Of a DNA stretch of 64,000 nucleotides, positions 4,932 through 64,000 are shown one piece after another. The notes under the pieces were generated by a model. It saw only the letters and a program-made list of their open reading frames with translations, was not told the origin of the DNA and did not search any database. This DNA is from an uncultured Candidatus Binatia bacterium. GTDB taxonomy: Bacteria > Desulfobacterota > Binatia > UBA9968 > JAJDTQ01. The position numbers were made by a program, and so were the translations under genes. Positions within the stretch are counted from its first letter, which is position 1. Each line of letters starts with the position of its first letter. The stretch spans positions 4,000,001-4,064,000 of the forward strand of contig OZ251459.1 of the NCBI GenBank assembly GCA_965242525.1, given 5' to 3'.

Positions 4932-4963
<32 letters not shown>

Positions 4964-5007
4964 GGTCCGGGAGATACGGCAATGGCGCACCGTGGGAGGG
5001 TAAGACA

Positions 5008-8000: not shown

Positions 8001-10374
8001 GGACGCGAGCGGCTACAAGGTGCAATGGAAGTCCGGGAGCGAGGAATACGACCCCGCGGAGCGGGAGGCGGAGGTGACCACCGGCACGAGCCACGTCATC
8101 ACCGGCCTGGACACGGGCACGACCTACACGGTGCGGGTCATCTCCACCCACAGTACCGAACCGGACAGCCAGCCCTCATCGGAGGCCACCGGGACGCCAG
8201 AGGACCCGCCCCCTCCGCCTTCCCCGGTTCCCCCGCGGCCCGAGACCCTGATCGATGTAGGCAGCGATGCGGGCGAGACGGAGCATACGGTGAGGGGGCG
8301 CACGGTGACGGTGGTGGTGGAAGAGGGGGTTCCGGCAGGGATCGAGCTGGACCTGGCGAGCCTGCCGGAGCCGGCTACCGAGAACGAGCGTCTGACTCTG
8401 ACCTTCTCGCCGGTGGCCGACCCGCCGGCGGGCCAGGGGGTCAACCTGGGGCCGGCCGCGGCCCGGACGGTGGTGGACGTGTCGGTGCAGGTGGGGACGG
8501 TCCCGTCCGCGGGCGTGCGGCTGTGCCTGCCTGTGCCGCAGGGTCTGCGGGACGCTGCGGGCGGGCGGCGCCTGTTGCTGCTGCATTACGACGGGGAGAC
8601 CTGGTCGGAAGTGGAGGGTTCGAGCGAGTCCGGAGGGAGGGTGTGCGCTTCGGGCATCGCGTCCTTCTCGTTCTTTGCGGTGGGTTACGAGGACACGCGG
8701 CCGGTGTTCCCGTCCGACTTCACCATGACGCGGATGGTGTTCGCGTTGGGGCGGGACGTGCGGGTGGTGTTGCCGGCGGCCTCGGGCGGGGACGGGACGG
8801 AGCACGCGTTGCTGCCGCAGCCGCAGGTGTTGCCTCCGGGGCTGCGGTTCGACCCGGCGTCGCGGACCCTGTCGGGGACGCCCACGGAGGAGTTCCCCCG
8901 GAGGGCCTACCGGTGGACGGCGACGGACCGGGACGGACAGACTGCGGAGTTGGAGTTCACCATCGAGGTGTTGTCGGCGAAGACGCTGTCGCGGGCGCGG
9001 TTGAAGAGGGTCAACGAAGCGATCCTGCCGGAGTTGTCGCGCGCCATGTGGGGCGGGGCCATGGAAGCGGTGGCGAGGCGCGTGGAGGAGATGGCGCAAG
9101 GGGTTGGCGGCGGGACCGTAGGGGAAGGGTTGGACCGGGTGGCGGAGATGCTGGAGGGGCATGAGGAAGCGTCGAGGAAGGGCGAACTGAACTGGAACAG
9201 GATGGTGTCGGGCCGGTGGCTTTCGCTGGGGCTGTCGGAAGGCGGCGGAGGAACGGGCGGAGTCTCGGACCTGGGGTTGTGGGGGAGCGGTGACTACCGG
9301 AGCCTGCTGGTGAAGGGGACGGACGTGGGGGATTGGGAAGGGGAGGTGTACGGCGGGAACGTGGGGATGGACGGGGTCTGGGGGCAGGAGTTGTGGGGAG
9401 GCCGGTTGCTGGGAGGGTTGTCGGGGTCCTGGTACGAGAGCCGGGCGGAGTACGGGGCCGGCGCGGCTCCCGGTCGGCACGAGGGGTGGATGGTGAGCGT
9501 GCAGCCGTACATGGGTTGGTTGTCGGGGGACGGGGGTTGGTCGGTGTGGACGGCGGTGGGCTATGGGGAGGGGGAGGTGCGGATCGTGGACGAGGAACTG
9601 GCGGGGCGGTACGGGGAGCAGAAGAGCGGCAGTCGTCTGGCGGGCGGGGCGCTGGGCGGGAGGATGGGGTTGCTGGAGGTCGGGCGCACGCGAGTGGAGA
9701 TGAAGGGGGAAGGACGGGTCGCGCAACTGAAGGTGGACGACAACGGGGAGTTGATCGCCGGGGTGACGGTGGAGACGTACCGGTTGCGGACCGCGGTGGA
9801 AGGGACCACGCGGTGGGGGGCGCTGGAGTTGCGGAGCGAGTTCGGGGCCAGGTGGGACGGAGGGGACGGACAGACGGGAGCGGGGATCGAGTCGGGGGGC
9901 GCTTTGGCGTATGCGTTCCCGGGGTCGGGCCTCAGGTTGGAGGGCAACTGGCGCGGGTTGGCGTGGCACGGCGGCAAGGTCCATGAGTGGGGAGCCGGGG
10001 GATCGGTGTCGTGGGTGTCCGGGACCGAGGGGCTGGGTTGGCTGCTGAAGGTGGCGCCTTCGTGGGGAGAGACGGGGAGCGGCGTGGGGCGTCTGTGGGA
10101 GGAAAGGTTGGCGGACGCCGGGTCGGACAGGAGCAGGGTTCCCGGAGGTCGCGTGGAGACGGAGATGGGTTACGGGATCGGGCTGTCGGGCCGCGGGGTG
10201 TGGACGCCGTATGCAGGCGCGGGGCTTTGGGGCGACGGAGGCCGGAAGTACCGGGTGGGAAGCCGCCTGAAGGGGAAGGGATCACTGGCGCTGGACCTGG
10301 AGGCCGAACGCAGAGAGCGCCGCACCGCCCGCCCCGAACACGGCGTCAACCTGAACCTGCGCGTCCGGTGGTAG
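5008..10374 (+). CDS. large autotransporter/adhesin with fibronectin type III repeats, putative Ig domain and C-terminal beta-barrel
   Basis: Signal peptide MRSRRIVSLLALTVFAAAAFA; ten ~90-aa repeats with SW...GYKVQWKSG...GL..GT.Y.V.V; LPPGLRFDPASRTLSGTP (He_PIG-like); barrel-like C-terminus ending NLNLRVRW; RBS-like GGGAGG upstream. Confidence 0.88.
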   Translation: MRSRRIVSLLALTVFAAAAFAAVPRDAEATCSEASHTISNLQVTSKTQTSISYSWSRPACATGNARYRVAQPRPGGHDFLTRTPASSAATLTYTRTGLSPGTSYSTTVRLENSSIDRTGWATTVTTTTNAPPPGAPSGVTVTPGVQSLVVSWTAGTNANGYKVQWKSGSQAYDTSTRQATSTSTSYTISSLTGGTEYTVRVISTRTGASDSAASSEETGTPQYPAAAVPSGVTVTPALSSLVVSWTASANASGYKVQWKSGSQVYNTGDRQATVTTGTSYTITGLTAGVSYDVQVIATRSNAPDSAASTETSGIAQYPAAGVPGSVTVAPAVQSLTVSWTAATNADGYKVQWKSGAQAYDAATRQATATGTSHTITGLTGGTEYTVRVIATRTNAPDGTASSEATGTPQYPAAGVPGSVTVAPAVQSLTVSWTAGANANGYKVQWKSGAQAYDAATRQATTTGTSYTITGLTAGTSYDVRVIATRTNAPDGTASSEETGTPQHPAAGVPSGVTVTPAVGSLVVSWTAAANANGYKVQWKSGIEAYNTGDRQATSTSTSHTISSLTAGTEYTVRVIATRTNAPDSAASSERTGTAQYAAAGVPSGVTVTPAVESLTVSWTAATNANGYKVQWKSGSEAYNTSSRQATVTSGTSYTITGLTGGTSYDVRVISTRTNAPDSAASSDTSGTAQSPPPGAPGGVTVTPAVASLIVSWNAVTGANGYKVQWKSGSQMYDASARQGTTTGTSHTITGLTAGTEYDVQVIATHTNAPDSAASGEVSETPQQPAAGAPSGVTATPAVESLAVSWTAGTNANGYKVQWKSGSQGYDAATRQATVSSGTSYTITSLTGGTEYTIRVISTRTNAPDSAASSEETGIPQQPPPGVPSNVRAAPAGLTSLTVSWDAVTGASGYKVQWKSGAQVYDTSARQETATGTSHVITGLTQGTEYTVRVITTNTNAPDSAASAEATGTPTLPPPAQVTVAPAADSPTDSLAVSWSAVADASGYKVQWKSGSEEYDPAEREAEVTTGTSHVITGLDTGTTYTVRVISTHSTEPDSQPSSEATGTPEDPPPPPSPVPPRPETLIDVGSDAGETEHTVRGRTVTVVVEEGVPAGIELDLASLPEPATENERLTLTFSPVADPPAGQGVNLGPAAARTVVDVSVQVGTVPSAGVRLCLPVPQGLRDAAGGRRLLLLHYDGETWSEVEGSSESGGRVCASGIASFSFFAVGYEDTRPVFPSDFTMTRMVFALGRDVRVVLPAASGGDGTEHALLPQPQVLPPGLRFDPASRTLSGTPTEEFPRRAYRWTATDRDGQTAELEFTIEVLSAKTLSRARLKRVNEAILPELSRAMWGGAMEAVARRVEEMAQGVGGGTVGEGLDRVAEMLEGHEEASRKGELNWNRMVSGRWLSLGLSEGGGGTGGVSDLGLWGSGDYRSLLVKGTDVGDWEGEVYGGNVGMDGVWGQELWGGRLLGGLSGSWYESRAEYGAGAAPGRHEGWMVSVQPYMGWLSGDGGWSVWTAVGYGEGEVRIVDEELAGRYGEQKSGSRLAGGALGGRMGLLEVGRTRVEMKGEGRVAQLKVDDNGELIAGVTVETYRLRTAVEGTTRWGALELRSEFGARWDGGDGQTGAGIESGGALAYAFPGSGLRLEGNWRGLAWHGGKVHEWGAGGSVSWVSGTEGLGWLLKVAPSWGETGSGVGRLWEERLADAGSDRSRVPGGRVETEMGYGIGLSGRGVWTPYAGAGLWGDGGRKYRVGSRLKGKGSLALDLEAERRERRTARPEHGVNLNLRVRW
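5395..8200 (+). repeat. ten tandem FN3-coding repeats (~280 bp period)
   Basis: tacaaggtgca(g/a)tggaagtccggg recurs 10 times. Confidence 0.92.
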
Positions 10375-11315: not shown

Positions 11316-11354
11316 CTGAATCGACCGTTGACTCTTGCGGCTGGTTGCCGGACA

Positions 11355-11394: not shown

Positions 11395-11417
11395 GCGGCG
11401 GGACCGGAGGTTCGAGC

Positions 11418-50047: not shown

Positions 50048-50287
50048 ATGCCCATCCTGAAACGCGGCCGCGCGGATCTCTGCTGCGAGGTCACCGGCAA
50101 GGGCCGGCCGTTGGTGTTCCTCGGCGAGACCGCGTGCGCCGGCGAGGCGTGGAAGACCTGCCCGGCGCCGGAGTCCTCCCGTGACCATCGGTGCATCACC
50201 CTGGATTACCGCAGCGCCGGGCGCTCCGGCAAGCCGTCCGTCCCCTGCACGCTTCGACTCCCGTTTGCGACGGCTTCGGCCGGCTGA
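50048..50287 (+). pseudogene. truncated, degenerate alpha/beta hydrolase N-terminus
   Basis: DLCCEVTGKGRPLVFL...WK...RDHRCITLDYRSAGRS matches the hydrolase N-terminus pattern (LYYEV.G.G.PLV...DYRG.G.S); stops before the nucleophile motif, at the island edge. Confidence 0.7.
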
Positions 50288-50297: not shown

Positions 50298-51524
50298 ATG
50301 AACGCGCTGCAGGTTTCCACCGTCATTGACACGGTGCTTCTCAAGGTCGCGAGTCGATGCAACCTCGACTGCAACTACTGCTACGTCTATCACATGGGTG
50401 ACGACGGTTGGCGCGCTCAGCCGAAGCGCATGCCCGCGGCGGTTCAACAGGCCGCGGTCCGGCAGCTTGGGGACCTTTACGTCCACCAGCGGCAGCCGTT
50501 CAGCGTCGTGCTGCACGGGGGAGAACCGCTGCTGTTGGGGGCCGATGGTTTGCGCGACTTCTGCAATCGTCTTCGCTCTGCGCTTCCGGCGCCCTGCGGG
50601 ATCCACGTCCAGACGAACGGCGTGCTCTTGACCGAGGAGATCATCGACGTCTTCGTCCGGTTCGACGTCGGGATCTCCGTCAGCATCGACGGCCCTCGGG
50701 ACCTCCATGACCGATTTCGTCTCGATCTCCGAGGAAGGGGGTCCCATGACCGGGTGCGGGAAGCCATCGGCCGGTTGACTGCCCGGAGCGACGCCCGTCC
50801 CTTGTTCGCCGGAGTCCTGGCGGTGATCGATCCCGGTTCCAACCCTGGATCCGTCTATGCCTCCCTCAAGGCCACCGGCGCCCCGAGCCTCGATTTCCTG
50901 ATCCGCGATGGAAACCATGCGCGTCTGCCGCCGGGGAAAACCAGCGTTGACTCGACCGAATACGGACGCTGGATGGTCGGCATGCTCGACGTCTATCTCA
51001 GGGACCCGGAACCGCCGCGTGTGCGCATCCTCGACGACATGCTCCGGGTCATCCTTGGCGGCCAGGCTCGGAAAGAAGGGGTCGGCGTCAATGACTACGG
51101 TATCCTGACCATCGAGACCGATGGTCGCATCAACAAGAACGACACGTTGAAAGTCGCCCACCCAGGCGCGGACCGGTTCGAACGGAACTCATGGTCGATC
51201 CTTTCGGATAGCCTGCTCGACGTCCTCCGCAGCCAGTCCTATGCAGACTATTACCGCCAGCAGCGCCCCACTGCCCTCGCTTGTCGCGCCTGTCCCGAGC
51301 GGAACGTCTGCGGGGGCGGGATGGTGGCGCACCGATGGAGCGACGATCGCGGTTTTGACAATCCGTCCGTCTTTTGCGCAGACCAGCTATTGCTGATAAG
51401 GCGTATGCGGGAATGGGTTGCGCGGCGCCAAACCACGAGAAAAGCGGAAGGAGACTCCCTTGGACAACAGGAAAGATTCCCCCGATACCTGGAAGCACCA
51501 GTCGGCGGAGAACTCCGAGTTTGA
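50298..51524 (+). CDS. yhhB: cyclophane-forming radical SAM/SPASM peptide maturase (YhhB-like)
   Basis: LKVASRCNLDCNYCY, LHGGEPLL, QTNG, SIDGP, SPASM CRACPERNVCGGG..HRWS...FDNPSVFC; directly upstream of a YxxxYxxHxx precursor. Confidence 0.85.
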   Translation: MNALQVSTVIDTVLLKVASRCNLDCNYCYVYHMGDDGWRAQPKRMPAAVQQAAVRQLGDLYVHQRQPFSVVLHGGEPLLLGADGLRDFCNRLRSALPAPCGIHVQTNGVLLTEEIIDVFVRFDVGISVSIDGPRDLHDRFRLDLRGRGSHDRVREAIGRLTARSDARPLFAGVLAVIDPGSNPGSVYASLKATGAPSLDFLIRDGNHARLPPGKTSVDSTEYGRWMVGMLDVYLRDPEPPRVRILDDMLRVILGGQARKEGVGVNDYGILTIETDGRINKNDTLKVAHPGADRFERNSWSILSDSLLDVLRSQSYADYYRQQRPTALACRACPERNVCGGGMVAHRWSDDRGFDNPSVFCADQLLLIRRMREWVARRQTTRKAEGDSLGQQERFPRYLEAPVGGELRV

Positions 51525-51645
51525 GCCAAAGTACGTCGATAGCGTTGCCTTGACCCGCCTCATCGAGGAGGTACGGAACCGGGGTGACGGCGAAATCGGC
51601 TCACCGACGGCCTATAATCGCACGTACCACCGTCACAACAGGTGA
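51460..51645 (+). CDS. yhhA: YhhA-type triceptide precursor peptide
   Basis: TTG after AAGGAG; leader motif DSVALTRLIEEVRN; C-terminal core AYNRTYHRHNR. Confidence 0.82.
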   Translation: MDNRKDSPDTWKHQSAENSEFEPKYVDSVALTRLIEEVRNRGDGEIGSPTAYNRTYHRHNR

Positions 51646-51660
51646 TCGTCCGGGGCTTCC

Positions 51661-52278
51661 ATGCAGCCGTCCTGCGAGACGTCGCCTTGGTGCGCCCTTG
51701 GCCCGGTAGATCTCCGTGTTTCCCCTTTCCGCTACTTCCTGGCGCCGCGTTGCCTTGCGCCCGGTATGGAGCGGGCGCTCCTCGAATGGTTCGAGACCGA
51801 CGCGCCCTGGCGGCTCGTGGAGACCGATTTCTACCAGCAGTACGAATTCGACATGCTCCACATGGCCCTACCGACAAGCGTAGCTCCATTGATCTCGCCG
51901 GGGAACCTCACGGCGCTTCGTCGGGAAATGGCGGATATTTTCGACGTAGCCTTCGACGACCGGATCATGCTGGTAGCGCACAAACTGACATCCGGCCAAC
52001 GGATCGCCATTCACAACGACCATCTCGTTGGTGAAGAGACACATCGCTTGACCGTTCAGCTCAACCGGGGCCTTGATGATGAAGACGGCGGGCTCATCAT
52101 GTTGTTCAACAGCTTCGATCCCGCAGACGTCCATCGGATCATCCGTCCGGTCACCGGGAGCGGCATCGGGTTCGAGATCGGCGAGAACTCCCATCACGCG
52201 GTTTCCCGCCTGCACTGCGGAGAACGTTACACGCTCGTCTATTCCTTCCATGCTCGGCGGAACTCAGGAGACGGTTAG
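51661..52278 (+). CDS. yhhC: 2OG-Fe(II) oxygenase (YhhC-like)
   Basis: W.LVETDFYQQYEF, HxD in IAIHND, distal SHHAVS, RYTLVYSF. Confidence 0.82.
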   Translation: MQPSCETSPWCALGPVDLRVSPFRYFLAPRCLAPGMERALLEWFETDAPWRLVETDFYQQYEFDMLHMALPTSVAPLISPGNLTALRREMADIFDVAFDDRIMLVAHKLTSGQRIAIHNDHLVGEETHRLTVQLNRGLDDEDGGLIMLFNSFDPADVHRIIRPVTGSGIGFEIGENSHHAVSRLHCGERYTLVYSFHARRNSGDG

Positions 52279-53104
52279 AAAGGCGATCGTTCGATTCGCG
52301 GAGCCGTGGCTCCCCGGTCTCGCCGGTCCGTTGACGGCGAGCGCGTGGCAGGGGCTTGCGCACCACGGATTCGTCCCGTCGAACTACGGGACACACCGGT
52401 GGCTGGAGAGAGGTCCTGCGGCTGAGCGTCTGATTCTCGCTACGATTGAAATGGCTGGCCCTCTCGAGTGCCGAATCGAAGCGTTACCGGAGTCAAGTCG
52501 CACGCGCTACGAAAGAATCGGTCTGAGGTTCCCCGAATCCATCTCCATCGAGACCCATGTCGCAGCCTTGCGACAAGCACTCTCTCTCATTGCCCTGGTT
52601 CCGAGCCTCTACGCCGCCATTGCGGCTTACCTGCAAACCTTGCACGTTCTGGGATCCCCTGGCAAGGATCTCGACGTCAGTCACAGCGATCCGGATGTGC
52701 CTTTCTCGATTTTCACCTCGGTTCCGTCCGCCTGTCCGAACGGAGCCCTGCGTCTCGCCGAGTCCATCATCCACGAATGCATGCACCTCCAACTCACCAT
52801 GATCGAGACACTGCTGCCGCTCGTGGGCACGGAGGGCAGGGGGGCTTTCTCTCCTTGGCAGCAACGACAGCGACCACTCCGCGGCATCCTGCACGGCCTG
52901 TATGTTTTTTCCGTGATCGATGCATGGTTCCAAGCTCTGGACCAAGGCGACTTTCTAGCGCTGGAGAGCAGAACCTTCGTTGTCAAGCGTCGAGGAGAGA
53001 TCGCGCACGAGGTCGCACAAGTGGCCGATCTCGTTACCGTCGAAGGGTTGACGGAGTGTGGGCGAAACCTGGCATGTGGTGCTCTCCGGCGTTGCAAGAT
53101 TTGA
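52250..53104 (+). CDS. HExxH-domain peptide-modifying protein (aKG-HExxH type)
   Basis: SHSDPDVPFSIF, LAESIIHECMHLQL, SPWQQRQRPLRGILHGLYVF. Confidence 0.82.
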   Translation: MLGGTQETVRKAIVRFAEPWLPGLAGPLTASAWQGLAHHGFVPSNYGTHRWLERGPAAERLILATIEMAGPLECRIEALPESSRTRYERIGLRFPESISIETHVAALRQALSLIALVPSLYAAIAAYLQTLHVLGSPGKDLDVSHSDPDVPFSIFTSVPSACPNGALRLAESIIHECMHLQLTMIETLLPLVGTEGRGAFSPWQQRQRPLRGILHGLYVFSVIDAWFQALDQGDFLALESRTFVVKRRGEIAHEVAQVADLVTVEGLTECGRNLACGALRRCKI

Positions 53105-53184
53105 TCTTATGGAAACCCTGATCAACTTTATAGGGAGAGCGCGAGGGAATACCTTCATGCATGGCTCGATTGATCAAAGTGCCC

Positions 53185-53943
53185 TTACGCGAGAAAGTCT
53201 GCTGCCATGGCACTGAATTGTGCCGTTGGTTCCACTGCCGCGGCAAGCAGGCTACGAGCTTCGTCCCGAGTTTTGACGGCCTTTGCATCCGAATAGCCAT
53301 CCAGGAGTTGAGATATTACCGTCAAGTACCTGATCCCGTTCAGACAGCTCCAGCGAGCATCTATCAAGGCTGGCCGATTGAGGCCGGCAAGATCGATCGT
53401 CGTTCGTCCGCGAGTCGTCGAGCTCTCAGCAATTTCATTTTGAAATTGTATGTGCCCACGAGGATCATCCGTTCCACCCGGGTCAAGGATGAGCGGTTTT
53501 TCGCACGAGAGATCATCAGTATGGGAGCGTGCGCGCAGTGCGGGGTCGGACAATGGAAAAAGCGAACCCTTGGTCGAGTTGCAAATGCTGCAGGAATAAT
53601 ACAGGTTCTTCCAGGAGTAAGCTAGCCAGTAATACCCTGGATATAGAGCTTTCGAGCCTTTGCGCTGTTTCACGGCCCCCTTGGGTCGGTAATGCTCGAC
53701 GTCCCCGGGGGCATATGCATCGAACTTGCCTTCACAAAAACAGCATTTCCCGTGCTGGTCCGTCTTCAGTGCTTTCTTGATGGCTTTATGACCGTAGATT
53801 TTCGGCTCAAAGCAGAATTGCTTCGTTCCATTTCGAAACTCATGGCTATGCGCTTCGTAAGCTTGGCAATCTCGTTTGGTGCGATCAGTGCTCGCTTTCG
53901 CAAGTTTCGCAGGGGTGGACGACCGTTTATGGATTCGGATCAT
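53185..53943 (-). CDS. HNH endonuclease (Septu PtuB-like)
   Basis: KCCFCE, DVEHYRPKG, LAYSWKNLYYSCSICNSTKG, RGRTTIDLAGLNR. Confidence 0.85.
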   Translation of the reverse strand: MIRIHKRSSTPAKLAKASTDRTKRDCQAYEAHSHEFRNGTKQFCFEPKIYGHKAIKKALKTDQHGKCCFCEGKFDAYAPGDVEHYRPKGAVKQRKGSKALYPGYYWLAYSWKNLYYSCSICNSTKGSLFPLSDPALRARSHTDDLSCEKPLILDPGGTDDPRGHIQFQNEIAESSTTRGRTTIDLAGLNRPALIDARWSCLNGIRYLTVISQLLDGYSDAKAVKTRDEARSLLAAAVEPTAQFSAMAADFLA

Positions 53944-55316
53944 GACGAAAGGTTCCCTGGCTGAAGAAGCTCGGCTGCCTTGCGTATGACTTCCATGGCT
54001 TTTTGGTCTTCAGGCGATTCTGCGGTGGGTAGTTCAAGAGCCCGCCGGTCCAAATCGGCGAGTTCCTCGCGTTCGGCCTTCGAGAGCCTCTGTTTCTGGC
54101 GCAAGGCAACACGGCGCTTCTGTTGCTCCACGGTCTCAGGCGGTCGCGCTGATTCGAAGCCGAAGAGATCGCTTGTGAGAACCTGGTCCAGACGCCAGCT
54201 TCTGATGACGGCAGGATCGTTTTCGATTGTCACATGGTCCTTCCGCCATCGGACGACGGCCAAGTTTTGGCTCAGTGAGCTCTGCGCCATGAGCGGGCTG
54301 TGCGCAGTGGCGATGAACTGAACGTTGGGAAAATGGCCGGTAAGATGCTCACGAATCTCCCGCTGCCAGCGCGGATGGAGATGGAGGTCGATTTCGTCAA
54401 CGATCACGATGGCCGGTTCCTTGAAGGGGTCGGAACTTTCCGGGTATTGCTCGATGAGCCTCCAGGCGATGTCCATCGTCAAGGCAAACATCGTCTGGTA
54501 GCCAAGGCTCAACTGATCGAGAGGCACTTCTCCCGAAGGGGTCCTCACGTGAACTCCGGTTCGATCAGAGATGTAAGCCGTACTCCTCGGGCCAAGTATC
54601 CTGACGTCTCGGGGATCCTGGATGTCCGGGAGGATCTCGGCAAGCATAAACGTGAGGCTGTCGAGAAGTTTCCTGGCGCGCTGGCGTTCTTCAGGGGTGT
54701 GACCTTTTGTCAACGAAGCATATTCCAGATCGCACAGGTTCTTTTCGGCATCATAGAGTTCGGACTCGACCCTGAATAATGACTGAACCGGGTCTATTTC
54801 AGGCGGTCGGTGACGCTCGGTCTTTGGGTGGCGTCCCGCGCCGTAGGCCAGGATAAAAGGTGGTTCCTCGTGGTACCTGGGGGCATCTCCACCGGGATCA
54901 ACATCCGTGATGTCGCCGTCCTTGCGTTTGATGGCAAGGGTTGTCGAAATGGTTCTGGGTTTACTGGTTCCGGGTTTACGCCGTTTTGGCCCCGCCAATG
55001 GCAATCCAACCGAAAGAGACGCCTTCAGTTGCACCTCCGCATCGATGCCGGATCGCGCCAACGCGCTCAGCACACGGTTTTCCTCTCTCACCAATTCGGG
55101 TTGGATATTGTCCTCGTCAGGGTTGAACTCCGGGCGCATGTACGCCAAGCATTGGAGTAGCGTGGTCTTGCCGGCGCCGTTGTCGCCTATGACGAGGGTC
55201 CACTGAGCGGGCCGGCCGTCGTCGTCGGTGAGGTCCAACTCCTGCCGTTCGCCGAAGCAGCGGACGTTTTCGAGCGACAGTTTCCGAAAGTAAATCGGGT
55301 TGGCTTTTCTGGACAT
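53940..55316 (-). CDS. ABC/AAA_21 ATPase (Septu PtuA-like)
   Basis: LENVRCF, GDNGAGKTT, AYGAGR, QLSLGYQ, IVIVDEIDLHLHPRWQR, QFIATAHSP; 4-nt overlap with the HNH gene. Confidence 0.87.
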   Translation of the reverse strand: MSRKANPIYFRKLSLENVRCFGERQELDLTDDDGRPAQWTLVIGDNGAGKTTLLQCLAYMRPEFNPDEDNIQPELVREENRVLSALARSGIDAEVQLKASLSVGLPLAGPKRRKPGTSKPRTISTTLAIKRKDGDITDVDPGGDAPRYHEEPPFILAYGAGRHPKTERHRPPEIDPVQSLFRVESELYDAEKNLCDLEYASLTKGHTPEERQRARKLLDSLTFMLAEILPDIQDPRDVRILGPRSTAYISDRTGVHVRTPSGEVPLDQLSLGYQTMFALTMDIAWRLIEQYPESSDPFKEPAIVIVDEIDLHLHPRWQREIREHLTGHFPNVQFIATAHSPLMAQSSLSQNLAVVRWRKDHVTIENDPAVIRSWRLDQVLTSDLFGFESARPPETVEQQKRRVALRQKQRLSKAEREELADLDRRALELPTAESPEDQKAMEVIRKAAELLQPGNLSS

Positions 55317-55394: not shown

Positions 55395-58193
55395 CTACTC
55401 CTCCCTCGGCGGGAACTCGAACGTGACCTTGCCGGCGTCGTCGAGGACGAGCCAGGCGGCGAAAGTGCGGCCGGATCGGGAGGAGACGAAGCCCTCCAGC
55501 AGGTCGGTCTTGCCCTCGGACAGGAGCTTGGCCATCTGGGCTCGGTCCACGGGCTGCTCCAGGATCACCGTCCCGGACTTGAACTTGCAGGGCTTGGTCT
55601 CCGCCTGGGACTTCTCGCACAGGTACCGGGAGTCCCACTCGAAGACCCGGCTCCGGCAGCGGGGGCACGGGCCCAGGGGCTCCTGCCCGGTGAAGTCCGC
55701 CTTGGGCGCGGGTTTGTCCCGTTTGGCCGCGGTCTTCCTGGCGGGGCGCGGCTCGAACTCGAACCCTACCTTGCCCTGCTGCAACGCGAGGAACGCCTTG
55801 AACGAGCGGCCGGTCCTGGACGAGACGAACTGGGGCAGCAGGTCGGTCTTGCCGTCGGCCAGCAGCTTGGCCATCTGCTCCCGCTCCACCGGTTGCCGGA
55901 GGATGATCTTGCCGGACGAGAACTCGCAGGTCCGCTGTTCGCCCACGGCGTTCTCGCACACGTAGCGCATGGGCAGCTCGAAGACGCGCCCGGCGCACCG
56001 GGGGCACGGCCCCAGGGGCTCCTGGCCGGTGAAGTCTTCGTTCTGTTCTGCCTGGCCGTCCCCGTTGCGCGGTTCGTTGCCGAAGTCGAAGGCGATCCTG
56101 TGATCGGGGGACAGTTGCAACACCGCGTCGAACGGCCGGCCCTGGCGGCTGCGGAACCCCTGGAGCGGCCCGACTTGGCGATGCTCCACGAGCGCCGCGG
56201 CCTCGTCGGCGCTCAGCAGCCGTCCGGCCAGGATCTTGGGCAAGGTGAAGTCGCAGTTCGCGCACTGGAAGTTGCGGTACTTTTCGTGCACCTCGCCGGC
56301 GCACTTGGGACACGGCGCCGAGAGCGAGCCGAAGTCCCCCGGGATGGTGTCGTGCTCGTACTGCCGCGCCCGGTCCACGATCTGGCGGGTCATCTCGGCG
56401 ATCTCGCCCATGAACTCGTCGCGGCTCTTCTTCCCGCCCTGCATCTGGAAGAGCTGGTACTCCCAGTTGCCGGTGAGCTCGGGCCGGGTGAGCTCCCGCA
56501 CGCCGAGGCCGTTGAGCAGCTCCATGAGCATGAACGCCTTGGGGGTGGCGTGCAGGTCCTTGCCCTCCCGGATGAGGTAGTCCTCGTCGAGGAGCCCCTC
56601 GATGATGGACGCACGGGTGGCGGACGTGCCGAGCCCCTTGCCCGCCATGGCCGTGCGCAGGTCCTCGTCGGTCACCAGCTTGCCGGCCCCTTCCATGGCG
56701 CCCAGCAGCGTGGCCTCGGTGAAGCGCGCCGGCGGCCGGGTCCGGCTCTGCTTGACCTCGACCTCGCCGGCCTCGACCTCCTCGCCCGCCCGGACCGGCG
56801 CCAGGCTGGCCTCGTCCGAGGACTTGGAGGCGTCCCTGCCGTGGACTTCCATCCAACCGGCCTTGACCATGACCTTGCCCGCGGTCTTGAACGGCTCCCC
56901 TTCCACCCGCGTGATCCGGGTGGTCTCCAGGAACTCGGCCGCGGGGTAGAAGACGGCCAGGAAGCGCCGGGCCACCAAGTCGTAGATCTTCTGCTCGGTC
57001 TCGTTGAGGCGCCTGGGCGCTTCGGTGGTGGGGATGATGGCGAAGTGGTCCGACACCTTGGCGTCGTTGAAGACCCGTTTGTCGGGCTTGACCCATCCCT
57101 GGCTCAGGATGGCCCCGGCGAACGGCGCGTAGCTCGTGTTCCCGAGCATCCGGAGCGAGTCCTTGACCGTGGCCACGTAGTCTTCCGGCAAGGCCCGGGA
57201 GTCGGTGCGCGGGTAGGTGAGGACCTTGTGGCGCTCGTACAACGCCTGGGCGATCTGCACGGTGCGGTTGGCGCTCAGGCCGAAACGGGCGTTGGCTTCG
57301 CGCTGGAGGCTCGTGAGGTCGAACAGGGGCGGCGGCGCCTGCCGGACGGGCTTGCTCTCCTCGCTCACGCTGCCCGGCTTGCCCAAGCACTTCTCCCGGA
57401 CGGCCTCGGCGGCGGCCTGCTCCCAGAACCGCTCGGCCCGGGCGTCGGGCTGGTCGTCCCGCTTCCGGAACCCCTCGTCGAACCAGCGCCCCTGGTACGC
57501 GCCCCCTTCGGACCGGAAGGTGGCGACCACCTCCCAGTAGTCCACGGGCCGGAAGTCCCGGATGGCGGCCTCGCGCTCCGCCACGATGGCCAGGGTCGGG
57601 GTCTGCACCCGCCCCACGGTGGTCTTGTAGAAGCCCCCCGGCTTGGAGTTGAACGCGGTCATGGCCCGGGTGCCGTTGATCCCCACCAGCCAGTCGGCCT
57701 CGGAGCGGCTCAGGGCGGCGTCGGCCAGGGGCAGCATCTCCTCGTCCTCGCGGAGCTTCACGAAGCCGTTGCGGATGGCGTCGGGGGTCATGGACTGGAG
57801 CCAGAGCCGCTTGATGGGTTTCCTGGCCTTGGCGTGGCGGACGATGTTGCGGAAGATCAGCTCGCCTTCCCGTCCGGCGTCACAGGCGTTGACCAGGTCG
57901 TCCACGTCCCTGCGCTTGATGAGCTTGACCAGCAGCTTGAGCCGGGAGGCGGACTTCTGGATGGGCTTCAGGTCGAAGTAGGGCGGGATCACCGGCAGGT
58001 TGGCGAAGCTCCACTTGCCCCGCTGGGCCTCGGCCCCTTCCGGCGGGACCTGCTCCAGCAGGTGGCCCACCGCGGACGACAACACGTAGTCGTCGCTCTC
58101 GTAGTAGTCCTGGCGCCGCTGGAAGCCGCCCAGGGCCCGGGCCACGTCCGCGGCCACCGATGGCTTCTCCGCGATGATGAGTGATTTGCCCAT
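55395..58193 (-). CDS. topB: DNA topoisomerase III with C-terminal repeats
   Basis: IIAEKPSVA, NACDAGREGELIF, GINGTRA, VGRVQTPTL, LTYPRTDS, DHFAIIPT; duplicated C-terminal DFTGQEPLGPCPRC...GKTDLL module. Confidence 0.93.
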   Translation of the reverse strand: MGKSLIIAEKPSVAADVARALGGFQRRQDYYESDDYVLSSAVGHLLEQVPPEGAEAQRGKWSFANLPVIPPYFDLKPIQKSASRLKLLVKLIKRRDVDDLVNACDAGREGELIFRNIVRHAKARKPIKRLWLQSMTPDAIRNGFVKLREDEEMLPLADAALSRSEADWLVGINGTRAMTAFNSKPGGFYKTTVGRVQTPTLAIVAEREAAIRDFRPVDYWEVVATFRSEGGAYQGRWFDEGFRKRDDQPDARAERFWEQAAAEAVREKCLGKPGSVSEESKPVRQAPPPLFDLTSLQREANARFGLSANRTVQIAQALYERHKVLTYPRTDSRALPEDYVATVKDSLRMLGNTSYAPFAGAILSQGWVKPDKRVFNDAKVSDHFAIIPTTEAPRRLNETEQKIYDLVARRFLAVFYPAAEFLETTRITRVEGEPFKTAGKVMVKAGWMEVHGRDASKSSDEASLAPVRAGEEVEAGEVEVKQSRTRPPARFTEATLLGAMEGAGKLVTDEDLRTAMAGKGLGTSATRASIIEGLLDEDYLIREGKDLHATPKAFMLMELLNGLGVRELTRPELTGNWEYQLFQMQGGKKSRDEFMGEIAEMTRQIVDRARQYEHDTIPGDFGSLSAPCPKCAGEVHEKYRNFQCANCDFTLPKILAGRLLSADEAAALVEHRQVGPLQGFRSRQGRPFDAVLQLSPDHRIAFDFGNEPRNGDGQAEQNEDFTGQEPLGPCPRCAGRVFELPMRYVCENAVGEQRTCEFSSGKIILRQPVEREQMAKLLADGKTDLLPQFVSSRTGRSFKAFLALQQGKVGFEFEPRPARKTAAKRDKPAPKADFTGQEPLGPCPRCRSRVFEWDSRYLCEKSQAETKPCKFKSGTVILEQPVDRAQMAKLLSEGKTDLLEGFVSSRSGRTFAAWLVLDDAGKVTFEFPPREE

Positions 58194-59252: not shown

Positions 59253-60458
59253 ATGCCCCCCGGTCCGGCCGGCAGCCCGAGTTTCTGGACGCCCACGTTC
59301 CTCCTGTTGTGCGCGGCGCAGTTCCTGGCCTACGGCCATCACGCGCTGCTGACCCCGACCCTGCCCCTCTACCTGGACCACCTGGGCGGCTCGCCGTTCC
59401 TGGTGGGCCTGCTGCTGGCCTCGTTCAGCGCCACCAGCGTGGCCATCCGTCCCCTGGTGGGCGCCTGGGTGGACTCCTGGGGCGAGACCCGGGTGCTCAG
59501 CCTGAGCTGCGCCGGCCTGTGCCTGGCGGTGCTGGTCTTCGTGGTCCCCCAGGTGGAAGGGGCCTTTGCCGCCAACGTCCTGCGCGGCTTCTCCTGGGCC
59601 GGCATCAACACCAGCGGCTACGCCTTCCTCGCCGCGGTGGTGCCCGACCACCGCCGCGGCGAAGCCAGCGGCTACTACTCCGGCATCCAGAGCAGCTCGT
59701 CGGTGTTCTTCCCGTCCGCGGCCCTGTGGATCATCGGCCATCCGGCCGGCGGCTACGCCGCGGTGTTCGTGCTGTCGAGCGCGGTGGCCCTCCTGGCCGC
59801 GGGACTGGCCCACGCCTGCGGTCGGGGCGCGCCCCGACCGGCGCCGCGAACGGACCCGGGCGGCCTGCCGGACCCGCCTCGGGCCAGGACCTACTTCGAC
59901 CGGGGCATCCTCTTCAGCGCGGCGCTGCTCTTCTGCATGAACCTGCCCTGGTCGGGTCTCACCTCCTTCATCGTACTCTACGCCCGCGAGGTCGGCATCG
60001 AGAGCCTGGGTTGGTACTTCGTGGCCATCGGACTCGCCAGCCTCGTGGGCCGGCCCCTCCTCGGCCGCGTGTCGGACCGGGTGGGCCGGGGTCCCGCGGT
60101 GGCCGCTGCCTACGTCCTGGAGATGGCCGGCATCGGGCTGGTCCTGATAGCGGCCGACGTGGCCGTGATGATGGCGGCCGGCGCGCTGTACTTCCTGGGG
60201 TACGCGCTGGGAGTCTCCACCACCCTGGCCCTGGCCATGGAGCGGGCCGACCCCCAACGCCGGGGCGTGGCCATGGCCACGTTCTCCATGGCCTTCCCCC
60301 TGGGCTCGGGGCTGGGGGCGGCGCTGGCGGGAGGCGTCGTGGCCCTGGTGGGCTACCGGGGCATGTACCTGGTCATGGGGGCGGCCCTCGCGGTGGGGCT
60401 CGTGTTGGCCCTGGCCAACCGGTCGGGCTTGGCGGCGCCGTCGCCCCGGGATGGGTGA
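59253..60458 (+). CDS. MFS transporter
   Basis: About 12 hydrophobic segments, RPLVGAWVDSWG, RRGEASG, GRVSDRVGR. Confidence 0.88.
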   Translation: MPPGPAGSPSFWTPTFLLLCAAQFLAYGHHALLTPTLPLYLDHLGGSPFLVGLLLASFSATSVAIRPLVGAWVDSWGETRVLSLSCAGLCLAVLVFVVPQVEGAFAANVLRGFSWAGINTSGYAFLAAVVPDHRRGEASGYYSGIQSSSSVFFPSAALWIIGHPAGGYAAVFVLSSAVALLAAGLAHACGRGAPRPAPRTDPGGLPDPPRARTYFDRGILFSAALLFCMNLPWSGLTSFIVLYAREVGIESLGWYFVAIGLASLVGRPLLGRVSDRVGRGPAVAAAYVLEMAGIGLVLIAADVAVMMAAGALYFLGYALGVSTTLALAMERADPQRRGVAMATFSMAFPLGSGLGAALAGGVVALVGYRGMYLVMGAALAVGLVLALANRSGLAAPSPRDG

Positions 60459-60493: not shown

Positions 60494-62548
60494 TCACTCC
60501 AGCAGCGCCTTCCACAGCGCATCCGGCGTATCCGAATAGAACTGCACGTTGACCCGCGTGGCCATGTGGTCGGACAGGTCGAACAACTGCTTGCGCGCGG
60601 ACACCGGCAGCAGCACCGCCGCGGCCCCCTTCTCCACCGCGGCTTCCACGACGCCCACGGCGTTCGCCAGCGGCTCCACCGACCCGCCGAGGTTCAACGC
60701 CCCCGCCACGATCAGGCCGCCCCGGACGCTCTTCTCCAGCAGCCCGCTGCAAAGCGCCATCAATACCGGCAGGCCGAGGCCGGCCCCGCCGCGGTCGTTG
60801 TCCATGGCGCGGAGCTGCACGGAGAACTCGTGGGCGCGGGGGTCCCGGTCCCCCACCAGCTCCCTGGCCCTGGCGTAGAGGTTCTGCTCCGCGTACCGGG
60901 CGCTCTCGCGGAACGCCGGCGGGACCGGGGCGTTCAGGATCCGGACGCCGCCGCCCCGGCCCGCCGCGACCTCGATGCGGTAGAGGCCGGGTCCCGTATC
61001 CGGCCCGCCCGGACCGATCCCCCACACCTGCCCGGGCGGCAGCGGGTCCGGGTCGATGGCGTCGTCGCTGCGAAGCTCCGGCGTGGAGACGAACTTCTCG
61101 ACTCCGTCCTCGCCCATGGCGTAGCTGAAGTGGGTGTTGCGGAACTCGCTCTTGAACACCCGCTTCTGCTGCTCCTTGACCCGGCGGCGCATTTCGAGGG
61201 CGGCGCGCGCCAGCGCCTCCAGCTCGTCGTCCGGCACGGGCATGTCCGGGTCCGGGTAGAGCAGCTTGAGCAGCGCGCTCACCGTCTTGTTGACCGCGGT
61301 GAGGTCGCGCCCGCTGAGGGCGCCGCCGTAGTGCAGCCTGTCCTGCAGGGCCGGGGCGCGGCTGCCGGTGCGGAGCCGGCTCCAGCACTCGGACAGGAAA
61401 TCGCTGACCAGGCCGAAGTGGTCGGTGAAGTGCTCGTTCGGGTTGAGTTTCGGGAAGTCCCAGCCGGGCAGGTAGGCGTGGATGCGGTCCATGAACGCGG
61501 TGTCGTCGCGCAGGTCCGCGGAGAGCGGGCTCAGCAGGTGCCCGACGCGCTGTTGCTGCTCCACGTCCACGTCGAGGTTCCCCACCATGACCACGCCGCC
61601 CTCCGCCCGGATGCTCTCCTTGCCGCGGGAGAACTCGCCGGACTCCATGTAGCCCTTGAGGATGTTCACTCCGTCCTTCTGGTCGAAGGCGACCCCCGAG
61701 ATCTCGTCGAAGCACACCACGTCGTACTGGCAGACGAGCCCGCGCTGTCCGTTGGCGTTGTTGACGAACATCTTGGCCACCGTCGCCTTGCCGCCGGAGA
61801 CCAGGTGGGAGTAGGGGGAGACCTGCTGGAACAGGTGGCTCTTGCCCGTGCCCCGCGGCCCCAGCTCGACCAGGTTGTAGTTCCGCTCGACGAAGGGCGC
61901 CATGCGCAGGAGGGCGACCGTCTGCGCCCGTTCCGACAGGGCCGCGGGCTCCAGCCCGACGCTGCGCAACAGGACGCGCCTCCACTCTTCGGCGGTAAAG
62001 GCATGCCTCCCGCGTCGGAGCGTGTCCAGGACGTCGGCCCTGGAAAGCTGGATGGCCCGGAGGGCGTCGATGGCGAAGGGACGCCCGTTCTTCTCCTGGG
62101 CGATGGCGGCGTCGTAGCCGAGTGTGACCTCGGCGTAGAAGCCGCCCGTCAACATGCGCTCGTGCTGCCTGACCAGGCCGTCGTCGATGCGCACGTCCCG
62201 GAGCGAAAGGCTCGGAAGCTCCGCGATCAGGGAGTCCGTCCGGGCGTCCAGCCTCGCGTTCACCACGTCGATGAGCTTGATGGATCCCCTTTCCCGCGCC
62301 CTCGCCTTGAACAGTTCCTCCTCGCCCGTGCGCACCGTCCGGTCGGAAAGCTGCCGCTCGACGATGGCCAGCCCTTCCTCGATCTCCCGTTCGTCGGTGG
62401 TCGCGCAGTAGCGCCCGAGCAGGAACTCCACCACGTAGGTGGGCACCGGGTACTGCCGGCTGTACTTGCGGACCAGGTCCTTGCGGACCAGGTAGCCCTC
62501 GAACGCGGCGGCCGCCCGCCGGTCGAGGTCGTCGATCGCCAGTGTCAA
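60494..62548 (-). CDS. brxL: BREX system Lon-like protein BrxL
   Basis: LVRKDLV, VPTYVVEFLLGRYC, VELGPRGTGKSH, FDEISG, KGYMESGEFSRG, TAFMDRIH; C-terminal Lon_C-like domain. Confidence 0.88.
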   Translation of the reverse strand: MTLAIDDLDRRAAAAFEGYLVRKDLVRKYSRQYPVPTYVVEFLLGRYCATTDEREIEEGLAIVERQLSDRTVRTGEEELFKARARERGSIKLIDVVNARLDARTDSLIAELPSLSLRDVRIDDGLVRQHERMLTGGFYAEVTLGYDAAIAQEKNGRPFAIDALRAIQLSRADVLDTLRRGRHAFTAEEWRRVLLRSVGLEPAALSERAQTVALLRMAPFVERNYNLVELGPRGTGKSHLFQQVSPYSHLVSGGKATVAKMFVNNANGQRGLVCQYDVVCFDEISGVAFDQKDGVNILKGYMESGEFSRGKESIRAEGGVVMVGNLDVDVEQQQRVGHLLSPLSADLRDDTAFMDRIHAYLPGWDFPKLNPNEHFTDHFGLVSDFLSECWSRLRTGSRAPALQDRLHYGGALSGRDLTAVNKTVSALLKLLYPDPDMPVPDDELEALARAALEMRRRVKEQQKRVFKSEFRNTHFSYAMGEDGVEKFVSTPELRSDDAIDPDPLPPGQVWGIGPGGPDTGPGLYRIEVAAGRGGGVRILNAPVPPAFRESARYAEQNLYARARELVGDRDPRAHEFSVQLRAMDNDRGGAGLGLPVLMALCSGLLEKSVRGGLIVAGALNLGGSVEPLANAVGVVEAAVEKGAAAVLLPVSARKQLFDLSDHMATRVNVQFYSDTPDALWKALLE

Positions 62549-64000
62549 TCCTCACCTCCGATGATCGTCGATTGCCTCGCGAGGACCTGTCCGTCGGAAT
62601 CCAGGACCACCACCGCGGCCGGCGCCCCCTCACGCTCGTCGTCGGGGACCAGCAGGCTCGCTGCGCCCTCGTCATCTGCCGGCCGCGCGCCCCCGCTGAC
62701 GCTCGAATCCGGGTCGTTGACCTGCGTTCGCAGATCGACGGACAGGCCCGGAGCGGCGCCCCCGAGCCGCACCCGGCACCGCAACCCGACCCACGAAACC
62801 GCGGCGACGTTGGTTTGCTCCCTGGCGGCAGCCGCGCCGGCGCTGACCCGAACCACCGGCACCAGGCATTCCTGGAGGCTGACCCCCCCGTGGACCCATT
62901 GGTTGCCCGCGCCGAAGCACGCGATGCCGGGGCCGACGGCCACCCGTTCCCGGGCGTTCCAACGCCAGGGTACGGTGGGGACCTCCGGCGCGGCCCCGTC
63001 CTGGACGGCCGCGCACCGCGCCCAGCGGCTCAGGGTGAGGTACTTCGGCAGATCGACCTTCGGCAGCCCGCCCGGAAGCCACAGCCAGCCGTGGTCCGTC
63101 ACCACCCGGACCTCGCGCCACCCGGCGCGGAGCAGGGCGTCGATGCGTTCCGCCAGCAGATCGACCTGTTCGTCGATCCGAGCCGCGAGCCTTCCTTGCA
63201 GTGAATGGCCCAGCTCGTCGATCCCGCCGTGTTCGGTCCAGGCCCGGCCCGACGGGTCTCCGGTCTCATCCGCGGTGATGTACGGGTAGCCGGCCGCGTC
63301 GAGAAGGGCGCGGAACCGATGGGTGGTGAGGGGTCCTCCGCCCTCCGTTACCGCGGGGAGGAAGTCCTCGCCGAGGGACCGCCCCTCGATGCGCTCCGCC
63401 ACCGGAGACACCGCGGGCTTGGCGGTGGCGGTGACCGTGGGGAGGGCGGCCCACCGGGTCGAGGCCGCTGCGGAACGGCCCCTGGTTTGCAGACGTTCCA
63501 ACAGCCGCTGCGCCACGTCCAGGCGCAGGGCGTCCGCGAAGAGGACCACCGTGCCGGGACCGGCGGGGGCATCGTCCCCCGGGAGCGCGGGCGTCTCGCC
63601 TGCGTCCGGACCGGGGAACGGCGCCGCATCCGCGAGCTCCTGGAGGCGCCGGGCCGCGGACTCCAGCCACGGACGGTAGATCGCGTCCAGCGCTGCGCTC
63701 ACGGCCTGGCCGTCCGCGGACGATTGCACCGCGGCCATGCCGTGGAGCGCCGCAGCGTCGATCTCCCAGGCTCCTTCGGCGTACAGACGGGCCATTTCGG
63801 CCGGGGAGGCCCCGCCGAGCTCGTTCGACGTGCGTCGCGCGAGGGTCGCCAGGTGCGCCAGGGCGCAGGCCAGCGGCGCCTGCCCGAGCTTCGCCCAGAC
63901 CCAGTTTCGCCTCTTGCCGTGCGTCCCTTCGAGCGACAGGACCTCGTCCCGGGCCTCGGACGGCGCATCGCCTCCCAGCTCCAGCAGGGCGCGCCGCAGG
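62545..64000 (-). CDS. pglZ: BREX phosphatase PglZ type B (5' end outside the window)
   Basis: FADALRLD, ALPTVTATAKPAV, IDELGH, VVTDHGW, HGGVSLQEC; the frame stays open to the window end (KRRNWVWAKLG). Confidence 0.88.
   Translation of the reverse strand, partial: LRRALLELGGDAPSEARDEVLSLEGTHGKRRNWVWAKLGQAPLACALAHLATLARRTSNELGGASPAEMARLYAEGAWEIDAAALHGMAAVQSSADGQAVSAALDAIYRPWLESAARRLQELADAAPFPGPDAGETPALPGDDAPAGPGTVVLFADALRLDVAQRLLERLQTRGRSAAASTRWAALPTVTATAKPAVSPVAERIEGRSLGEDFLPAVTEGGGPLTTHRFRALLDAAGYPYITADETGDPSGRAWTEHGGIDELGHSLQGRLAARIDEQVDLLAERIDALLRAGWREVRVVTDHGWLWLPGGLPKVDLPKYLTLSRWARCAAVQDGAAPEVPTVPWRWNARERVAVGPGIACFGAGNQWVHGGVSLQECLVPVVRVSAGAAAAREQTNVAAVSWVGLRCRVRLGGAAPGLSVDLRTQVNDPDSSVSGGARPADDEGAASLLVPDDEREGAPAAVVVLDSDGQVLARQSTIIGGED

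Follow-up and report, generated by a model that had tools for sequence, protein, structure and literature searches.

A triceptide gene cluster linked to a Septu-type nuclease pair: a candidate six-gene immune unit with interchangeable effectors

The six-gene block and its borders

The stretch of DNA analysed here (the window) comprises 64,000 nucleotides from an uncultured Candidatus Binatia bacterium (contig OZ251459.1), and its subject is a block of six intact genes at positions 50298-55316, in which a biosynthetic cluster for a cross-linked peptide converges on a nuclease pair. On the forward strand, yhhB (50298..51524) encodes a radical SAM/SPASM enzyme of the three-residue cyclophane maturase type (NCBIfam NF041707, 492.6 bits against a cut-off of 445), yhhA (51460..51645) a precursor peptide of 61 amino acids (NF041705, 52.9 bits against 36) and yhhC (51661..52278) a 2-oxoglutarate (2OG)-Fe(II) oxygenase that serves as peptide beta-hydroxylase (NF041706, 240 bits against 150; Pfam 2OG-FeII_Oxy_3). 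They are followed by a gene for a second peptide beta-hydroxylase, of the alpha-ketoglutarate (aKG)-HExxH family with the motif HECMH (~52250..53104, the start codon being approximate; TIGR04267, 95.9 bits against 40). On the reverse strand lie ptuB (53185..53943), encoding a Septu-type HNH nuclease (PADLOC PDLC00339, E 4e-88, full length), and ptuA (53940..55316), encoding a Septu-type ABC/SMC-like ATPase (PDLC00304, E 8e-145, full length; Pfam AAA_21 and AAA_15). The start of ptuB and the stop of ptuA overlap by 4 nt, and the two halves of the block face each other across an 80-nt convergent spacer between two stop codons (53105..53184). The original prediction, made from the letters of the DNA, had described this gene content and order and had named the ATPase and HNH pair as Septu-type; the NCBIfam and PADLOC matches bear out the first statement, and PDLC00304, PDLC00339 and the predicted folds given below the second.

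The start of yhhA was set at a TTG codon (51460) that has GGAG upstream and aligns with the ATG starts of relatives, such that the 5' end of yhhA overlaps the 3' end of yhhB. YhhB has a Pfam Radical_SAM match, and its C-x3-C-x2-C cysteines (C21, C25 and C28) and C-terminal SPASM cysteines (C329, C332 and C338) are invariant (alignment A1, 23 sequences). A HExxH gene had been predicted in the cluster and is indeed present; its family is now refined to the aKG-dependent peptide beta-hydroxylases rather than the zinc proteases, on the TIGR04267 match, a phmmer match to ChlH (PDB 8s5f, E 5e-10) and the accessible text of PMC12636437. The first two of these rule out the HExxH protein as the missing leader protease. 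According to the same accessible text, some aKG-HExxH enzymes cut peptide backbones oxidatively, so the window protein may still have a processing role (PMC12636437). No protease or exporter gene was found inside the block in NCBIfam, Pfam and PADLOC scans, in line with what had been predicted.

The block stands out in base composition. The GC content of the window is about 69%, and it falls to 0.53-0.66 over 50.2-55.3 kb against 0.68-0.75 in the flanks. The predicted excess of A/T-ending codons is likewise found, with GC at third codon positions (GC3) of 0.66-0.73 for three reading frames of the yhh region and ptuA compared with 0.87-0.96 in neighbouring genes. Pooled GC is 0.615 in the yhh genes and 0.559 in the ptu genes, against 0.707 in the flanks. 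The flanks are 94-95% identical in nucleotide sequence to those of a related locus, L026 (OZ241979.1, Candidatus Binatia), and are kept only in the nearest relatives. From this identity, the host of the window is probably closely related to the L026 organism.

The left border, outside the unit, is marked by the N-terminal remnant of an alpha/beta-hydrolase (50048..50287, forward strand, 79 amino acids) with 35% identity to the N-terminus of a hydrolase encoded at 58330-59214 (E 1e-8), which agrees with the truncated hydrolase gene that had been noticed at this point. The orthologue of the remnant is intact in L026 and in a second related locus, L001. The window is ∼670 bp shorter than L026 here (9287-9959 in L026, 50250-50257 in the window), the missing DNA being the hydrolase gene's 3' two-thirds plus the greater part of the spacer in front of yhhB. 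The left edge is a deletion scar and not an attachment site, and native DNA upstream of yhhB was lost with it. The yhh operon now directly follows the 5' end and promoter region of the hydrolase gene. The block borders have no flanking direct repeat and no tRNA gene close by, no integrase-type domain turned up in Pfam scans of the block and neighbouring genes, and promoter-like and terminator-like sites of the region are no commoner than in shuffled sequence. The convergent spacer has no notable fold (z −0.5) and no terminator-like site, and there is no Rfam match across 46-61 kb at E up to 0.1.

Linkage and effector replacement across species

Related loci were fetched from a one-genome-per-species collection with an alignment of YhhB (the window protein and 22 database homologues). 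The scan returned 142 stretches, 121 of which encode a YhhB relative; the best 80 of these were examined (numbered with the prefix L), with 41 loci outside the sample, and partner genes were called by tblastn with the window proteins. PtuA and PtuB of the window's subfamily lie beside the yhh cluster in 61 of the 80 loci, each from a different species, in nine named phyla. The distance between pair and cluster is below 700 nt in 59 of the 61, and the largest gap is 1,638 nt. The pair is found downstream and convergent, as in the window (46 loci), upstream on the same strand (9), upstream and divergent (4) or downstream on the same strand (2). The aKG-HExxH gene is present in 75 of the 80 loci.

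Defence-type effectors other than PtuAB take the same place in 12 further loci, and each of them abuts the yhh cluster. Five loci (L036, L037, L039, L042 and L050) encode SIR2 proteins of about 680 residues (SIR2_2; PADLOC SIR2 models, E 1e-22 to 1e-28) with a helical-repeat C-terminal half that aligns with a SIR2-TPR protein of L070. A protein combining TPR repeats with DUF4062, which we take to be a TIR-like domain, is encoded in three (L038, L043 and L061), and a Sel1 and DUF2971 protein in two (L058 and L078). The last two (L072 and L073) carry a KAP-type NTPase together with an RdrB-like adenosine-deaminase protein, and the two proteins of this pair are 38% and 49% identical between a gammaproteobacterium and an acidobacterium. 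Three loci (L001, L052 and L080) hold decayed clusters: in L001 and L052 yhhC is truncated and phage or transposase genes lie alongside, and in L080 only a remnant of PtuB is left. In four more, including the Neisseria locus, the contig ends beside the cluster, making them uninformative (L049, L069, L076 and L077). A defence-type effector thus adjoins the peptide genes in 73 of 76 informative loci, the remaining three being the decayed clusters. The co-occurrence check suggested with the original prediction, of yhhABC and HExxH clusters with PtuAB or defence genes, was therefore strongly positive.

Several single loci deserve mention. In L070 (3732-8193) the SIR2-TPR gene, ptuA and ptuB stand in a row on one strand beside the yhh genes, so that two effector types accompany one peptide module. 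In L072 a DDE transposase gene (11175-12278) is inserted between yhhB and yhhC. L001 (OY729432.1) has its decayed yhh cluster, which lacks PtuAB, at the site of the window's block; a PtuA homologue with 61% identity apparently comes from the same genome, which may carry a second locus elsewhere.

All 5,868 open reading frames (ORFs) from the loci were clustered all against all. The only families present in at least 20 loci are YhhB, YhhC/HExxH, PtuB and PtuA, the other widespread clusters being overlapping frames of the same genes; one cluster of 10 loci is made up of YhhA precursors. The clustering brought out no protease, transporter or flanking gene common to the loci. Thus, from the linkage in 61 of 80 loci and the in-place replacement of the effector, the two halves are more than co-residents of an island and form one conserved unit.

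The history of the association was traced on a YhhB tree of 78 of the 81 rows, three short ORFs having been dropped. On this tree L064, with PtuAB, is sister to L058, with the Sel1-DUF2971 protein (support 100/87), L042 (SIR2) is sister to L038 (DUF4062-TPR; 100/99) and L050 (SIR2) is nested inside a PtuAB clade (100/99). At least 16 changes are needed to account for the effector labels, and the core peptides are identical between effector-swapped sister loci. Distance correlations were calculated from 55 of 62 rows (seven with short ORFs were dropped) and gave r=0.47 for YhhB and PtuA, a value reached by none of 999 Mantel permutations, and r=0.88 for PtuA and PtuB. A PtuA tree was rooted with two plasmid homologues that stand alone, and on it the order of the yhh genes (B-A or A-B) requires 4-5 changes compared with 19.4 for shuffled labels, with none of 500 shuffles as low. 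These trees and distances suggest that PtuAB has mostly been co-inherited with the peptide genes.

A search in the other direction started from PtuA. In a plasmid collection, tblastn with the window's PtuA matched 12 records, none above 44% identity and 11 of them at 26-29% over most of the query, so the PtuA subfamily of the window is absent from that collection. Two of these plasmid loci (26-28% identity) were inspected and hold bare pairs of an ATPase and a hypothetical protein, with no yhh genes; one of the two stretches is cut at an unclassified radical SAM gene ∼5 kb off. In a crude reciprocal cross-check, at least 20 of the 120 best database matches of PtuA lie on contigs that apparently also carry YhhB matches, which is a lower bound. 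The conserved yhh linkage suggests that this PtuAB subfamily is not self-sufficient.

These comparisons bear on a rival account of the block, namely that an ordinary secreted triceptide product and an ordinary two-gene Septu system share a variable hot spot by coincidence or hitch-hiking. Both halves lie in a low-GC patch near BREX in the window, PADLOC models alone call the pair plain Septu, and a major facilitator superfamily (MFS) transporter gene (48486-50027, reverse strand) adjoins yhhB, all of which would fit that account. However, coincidence does not predict the same PtuAB subfamily beside the cluster in nine phyla and four arrangements, a PtuA phylogeny that tracks the yhh type, or effectors replaced in place, and the distant plasmid homologues of PtuA stand alone in the two loci inspected. 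The MFS gene was rejected as an exporter: it has a native GC3 of 0.94 and is a lineage-specific flank, with homologues near the cluster in only 5 of the 80 loci by tblastn (three close, at 77-93% identity, and two distant), and no exporter is conserved. Coincidence is already strongly disfavoured and we regard it as very improbable.

The peptide, its putative partner and a possible mode of control

The precursor YhhA has the leader motif S.ALTRLIEEVRN and the C-terminal core YNR-T-YHR-HNR. Both parts are conserved: all 81 precursors share a leader helix motif of the form S.ALARLIEEVRN and all end in Y-N/D-R-x-Y/H/F-H/N-R-H-N-R, sometimes with one or two further residues, and within the core Y52, R54, R58, H59, N60 and R61 are invariant among 54 sequences. 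The core contains three aromatic-x-Arg motifs, which are substrates of Tyr/His-to-Arg cross-links. In the accessible portions of the enzymological papers, YhhB joins Tyr-C3 and His-C2 to Arg-C-beta (PMC11002830), the product of YhhC is erythro-beta-hydroxy-Asp (PMC12186529), and Asp and His are the residues that aKG-HExxH proteins hydroxylate at the beta position, acting on peptides in which cyclophanes are already present (PMC12636437). From family membership and this published work, the expected product of the window genes would be a rigid, beta-hydroxylated and strongly basic tri-cyclophane rich in Arg and His.

The cores of antibiotic RiPPs (peptides made by the ribosome and modified after translation) usually vary. 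A core that is constant across phyla, in clusters that have no conserved exporter, is more like that of a molecule with a fixed cellular partner than of a competitive antibiotic, and the conservation points to a conserved partner or target.

The neighbouring nuclease pair has the features of a working enzyme. AlphaFold2 models of PtuB (mean predicted local distance difference test score, pLDDT, 96.6) and PtuA (pLDDT 88.6) have as their best PDB folds the PtuB chains of retron Ec78/Ec83 and E. coli Septu and the PtuA chains of retron I-A and E. coli Septu, respectively; every top Foldseek match is to a PtuA or PtuB chain (probability 1.00, TM-scores 0.45-0.66). In PtuA the Walker A, Walker B, ABC signature and H-loop motifs are conserved, with G44, N46, G47, G49, K50, D307, E308 and H339 invariant, and in PtuB the catalytic and zinc-binding residues of the HNH domain (C67, E83, H84 and N113) are invariant (alignment A4). 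Between the window and L026, the unit's five enzyme genes have ratios of non-synonymous to synonymous substitution rates (dN/dS) of 0.18-0.32. On these alignments the effector looks active and the unit looks to be under purifying selection. Prediction of a complex of PtuA, PtuB and YhhA with alignments returned 'no answer' (score 0.02), a result that counts neither for nor against contact.

We propose that the block is one six-gene unit composed of a peptide module and a dedicated partner, PtuAB, whose place can be taken by other effectors within the family, and that the unexported peptide gates the effector inside the cell, a proposal that in our judgement stands about evenly between right and wrong. 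YhhB, YhhC and the aKG-HExxH enzyme would convert the YhhA core into the tri-cyclophane, which would stay in the cell and act as the gate of the effector. In the favoured, retron-like version the peptide would be made constitutively and, alone or with its enzymes, would hold PtuAB inactive; a phage that disturbed the peptide, or its synthesis, which depends on S-adenosylmethionine, Fe and 2OG, would then free the nuclease. The sign could also be the opposite, with the peptide as an activating ligand of the effector. TPR and Sel1 repeats are typical peptide-binding modules, and their presence in three of the replacement effectors fits either an inhibitor or an activator. Peptide genes and effector together have the layout of a modular immune system of the abortive-infection type, with a conserved control module and variable effectors. 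The gene identities, the conserved linkage, the co-inheritance, the swapping of effectors, the near-invariant core and the lack of a conserved protease or exporter are observed; that the unit defends, that the peptide acts within the cell and which way it controls the effector are inferred. The broader claim, that these loci represent a widespread and as yet unnamed immune class in which a radical-SAM-cyclised ribosomal peptide gates, or carries a message to, suicide effectors that can take each other's place (nuclease, NADase, TIR-like and deaminase), is put forward more tentatively, as it falls a little short of an even chance in our estimation.

The proposed gating faces several difficulties, which we collect here. 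Defence, toxicity and contact between peptide and effector are all putative and are drawn from gene content and comparison. Five effector types that are not related to one another would all depend on the same peptide, which calls for several independent solutions to recognition, and obvious peptide-binding-type repeats (TPR or Sel1) occur in only three of the five. Cyclophane cross-links usually stabilize peptides, which argues against a labile antitoxin, and the slowness of radical SAM enzymes is hard to square with a rapid messenger. YhhB was the only seed for the loci, of which the best 80 among 121 confirmed were used. The correlation between YhhB and PtuA distances (r=0.47) is only moderate, so the two halves have sometimes been exchanged. 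In the window itself, the deletion upstream of yhhB may make expression of the unit uncertain. Furthermore, SIR2 and RADAR-type systems also work alone, and Septu is described as a stand-alone pair in the accessible part of PMC12819146; if the effectors act by themselves, the peptide could be an accessory rather than a gate.

This last point leads to the main rival, in which the peptide is an output: the effector would sense infection and kill, and the stored peptide would add a further toxin or antiviral, or would escape from the dying cell to alarm its neighbours. In addition to effector families that include the self-sufficient types just named, the presence of the same core beside unrelated effectors is easier to understand if no binding is needed, the lack of a conserved exporter fits release by lysis, and a 'toxin or signal' role was predicted by Aravind and co-workers for the related FxSxx system, as far as the accessible text of PMC7159879 and 10.64898/2026.10.19.760177 goes. 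However, the unit has no gene for a receptor that could perceive an alarm signal, and a peptide toxin that needs no partner need not stay within 700 nt of the effector through four rearrangements. We consider a role as output unlikely.

The adjacent proteins might instead serve the peptide pathway itself, in self-protection or processing, and have no part in immunity. TPR proteins occur in other triceptide clusters (under the NCBIfam name HaaT), and TPR or Sel1 repeats are found in three of the replacement partners, as such a service would lead one to expect. In contrast, a nuclease pair, an NADase-type SIR2 protein, a TIR-like domain and a deaminase have no plausible shared role in maturation or resistance, and the catalytic motifs of PtuAB are conserved. 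We therefore give this explanation very little credence.

The unit is mobile and is often found near other defence genes. Among 58 loci, GC is lower than in the flanks for the ptu genes of 50 and for the yhh genes of 42. The ptu half is lower in GC than the yhh half in 49 of the 58, such that the gap between the two halves is a trait of the family and not a sign of two separate acquisitions. Among nine loci taken at random from 46 full-length ones, four have further defence genes (HEC-01 twice, a type II methyltransferase and Dsr2). A TnsB gene and two TniQ genes lie just upstream of the six-gene unit in L060 (404-6669), which suggests that this copy rides on a Tn7-like element. Other units stand beside a RelA/SpoT-like protein gene (L036, 12544-13704; PADLOC candidate PDC-S33, E 2e-94), a Dsr2 homologue (L035, 16380-20087; E 4e-134) or a gene for a UvrD-type helicase with a PD-(D/E)XK nuclease domain (L039, 12706-15906).

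Mobility of this kind, with the GC drop in most loci, the Tn7-like element of L060 and flanks that are not conserved, would also be expected of an addiction cassette, in which the effector is the toxin, the peptide module is the antidote and the pair stabilizes mobile DNA with no anti-phage role, much as in toxin-antitoxin systems. Decayed loci have lost the effector (L080) or both halves (L001 and L052), as addiction would predict, and no locus was seen with an effector alone, although such loci would be invisible to sampling seeded on YhhB. On the other hand, every replacement effector comes from a family known or proposed to act in phage defence, and further defence genes lie near the unit in four of the nine sampled loci as well as in the window. 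Many toxin-antitoxin systems also act in defence, and the two roles need not exclude each other. A cassette for addiction alone appears to us quite improbable.

Known systems and genomic surroundings

The window pair resembles Septu in being two overlapping genes with full-length PADLOC matches to PtuA and PtuB, the matching predicted folds and intact ATPase and HNH motifs. Unlike stand-alone Septu, which has no such partner, its subfamily is coupled to four genes for making a peptide in 61 of the 80 YhhB-seeded loci. Swapping of effectors is also seen in the wider retron family. Retrons of type I-A (Ec78/Eco7 and Ec83) share with the unit a biosynthetic module for an unusual modified polymer beside PtuAB, although the retron partner is an anionic multicopy single-stranded DNA (msDNA), whereas that of the window is a cationic cyclophane peptide. 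In retron Eco7/Ec78 the reverse transcriptase-msDNA binds and neutralizes PtuAB, which is set free when a phage nuclease cuts the msDNA (PMC12640716 and PMC12819146, accessible text). Pfam scans of the block and neighbouring genes found no reverse transcriptase domain, and no Rfam RNA is present in 46-61 kb. The NCBIfam equivalogs of retron Ec78 are far below their cut-offs (130 bits against 500 for PtuA and 44 against 150 for PtuB).

CBASS, Thoeris, Pycsar and type III CRISPR systems each combine a conserved module that produces a small molecule with interchangeable effectors (nuclease, NADase and others). They differ from the unit in that its product would be a ribosomal peptide and not a nucleotide; no ligand-sensing domain shared across the unit's effectors was identified, and the unit is not known to have a phage-sensing step.

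The YhhABC triceptide biosynthetic cluster was reportedly described by Sugiyama et al. in 2022 and has so far been treated as a natural-product pathway. The window genes score above the cut-offs of all three equivalogs, and the core fits the cross-links made by YhhB and the hydroxylation by YhhC as given in the accessible portions of PMC11002830 and PMC12186529.

A different peptide system comes closest in concept. The FxSxx-COOH peptide-processing system is predicted to couple to TIR/STAND conflict systems, with a role as 'toxin or signal', in the accessible text of PMC7159879 and 10.64898/2026.10.19.760177. As described there, it resembles the unit in having a radical SAM/SPASM enzyme, a HExxH-type protein and a small peptide with a C-terminal core beside TIR, STAND or TPR effectors. 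Unlike the unit, the same text presents it as mostly actinobacterial, with a different peptide motif and embedded in large VMAP-ternary and TIR-ParA multi-gene systems; the HExxH protein is taken as a peptidase, and PtuAB, YhhC or a six-gene unit do not appear in that part of its description. The window YhhB reaches 339.7 bits with the FxsB-family model TIGR04269, below both its cut-off of 370 and the score of the YhhB model, and the window peptide ends in HNR and not in FxSxx, which places it outside FxsAB. The closest printed idea is this computational prediction for the Fxs system. No link of triceptide or YhhABC genes with PtuAB, HNH or SIR2 effectors was found in the literature, with subscription journals and bioRxiv supplements beyond reach and a prior mention there possible. 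The radical SAM defence system 'Ophion' (10.1101/2025.09.30.679545) was considered as a prior description and set aside, as its components differ.

If the unit is a defence system, modified peptides would join nucleotides and msDNA as controllers of bacterial immune effectors, and a RiPP would act as an intracellular immune regulator rather than a secreted antibiotic. A triceptide with a core that hardly varies over nine named phyla would thereby gain a biological function, and this would explain why these clusters have no conserved protease and exporter. Much of what databases label 'Septu' or 'triceptide gene cluster' would then amount to two halves of one system: defence finders call plain Septu and genome-mining tools a natural-product cluster, each seeing half. 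The repeated replacement of the effector beside an identical peptide is in effect a natural experiment on how one control module is wired to different killing enzymes. The unit can be read as a peptide module that has co-opted an effector of the Septu type, a reading of high interest should the peptide's control role be confirmed, and the idea can be tested directly in cultured carriers from the sample, which include Cupriavidus, Mesorhizobium, Sphingomonas and Mucilaginibacter.

On the ptuA side of the block, the window ends in part of a BREX operon that runs off its edge, comprising brxL (60494..62551, reverse strand, with the Pfam domains BrxL_N, BrxL_ATPase and Lon_C) and the 3' part of pglZ (62545..63999, reverse strand, Pfam). 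The end of brxL is 5.2 kb from the start of ptuA, in agreement with the ∼5 kb predicted. BREX was considered as a parent system, but the unit does not travel with brxL/pglZ: of the 80 loci only L002 and L026, which are closely related to the window, have a BrxL homologue near the cluster.

Between the block and BREX lie a topoisomerase gene, the hydrolase gene at 58330-59214 and an ORF for a multi-pass membrane protein (59300..60458, forward strand) that stands between the hydrolase gene and brxL and is MFS-like by impression only. The first of these encodes a type IA topoisomerase of 932 amino acids with three C-terminal Toprim_Crpt zinc-ribbon repeats (55395..58193, reverse strand, Pfam). 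It ends 79 nt upstream of ptuA on the same strand, an order kept only in the nearest relatives, and contains an internal direct repeat of 250 nt (55448-55697 and 55787-56036, 73% identical). Synonymous divergence from L026 is 0.21-0.36 for five genes of the unit and 0.29 for the topoisomerase gene, compared with 0.10-0.13 for the flanking genes on both sides, and recombination with a less closely related genome may have replaced the whole 8-kb segment 50298-58193. Elsewhere in the window, a very large ORF (4744..10374, forward strand) encodes 1,876 amino acids with at least 11 fibronectin type III repeats.

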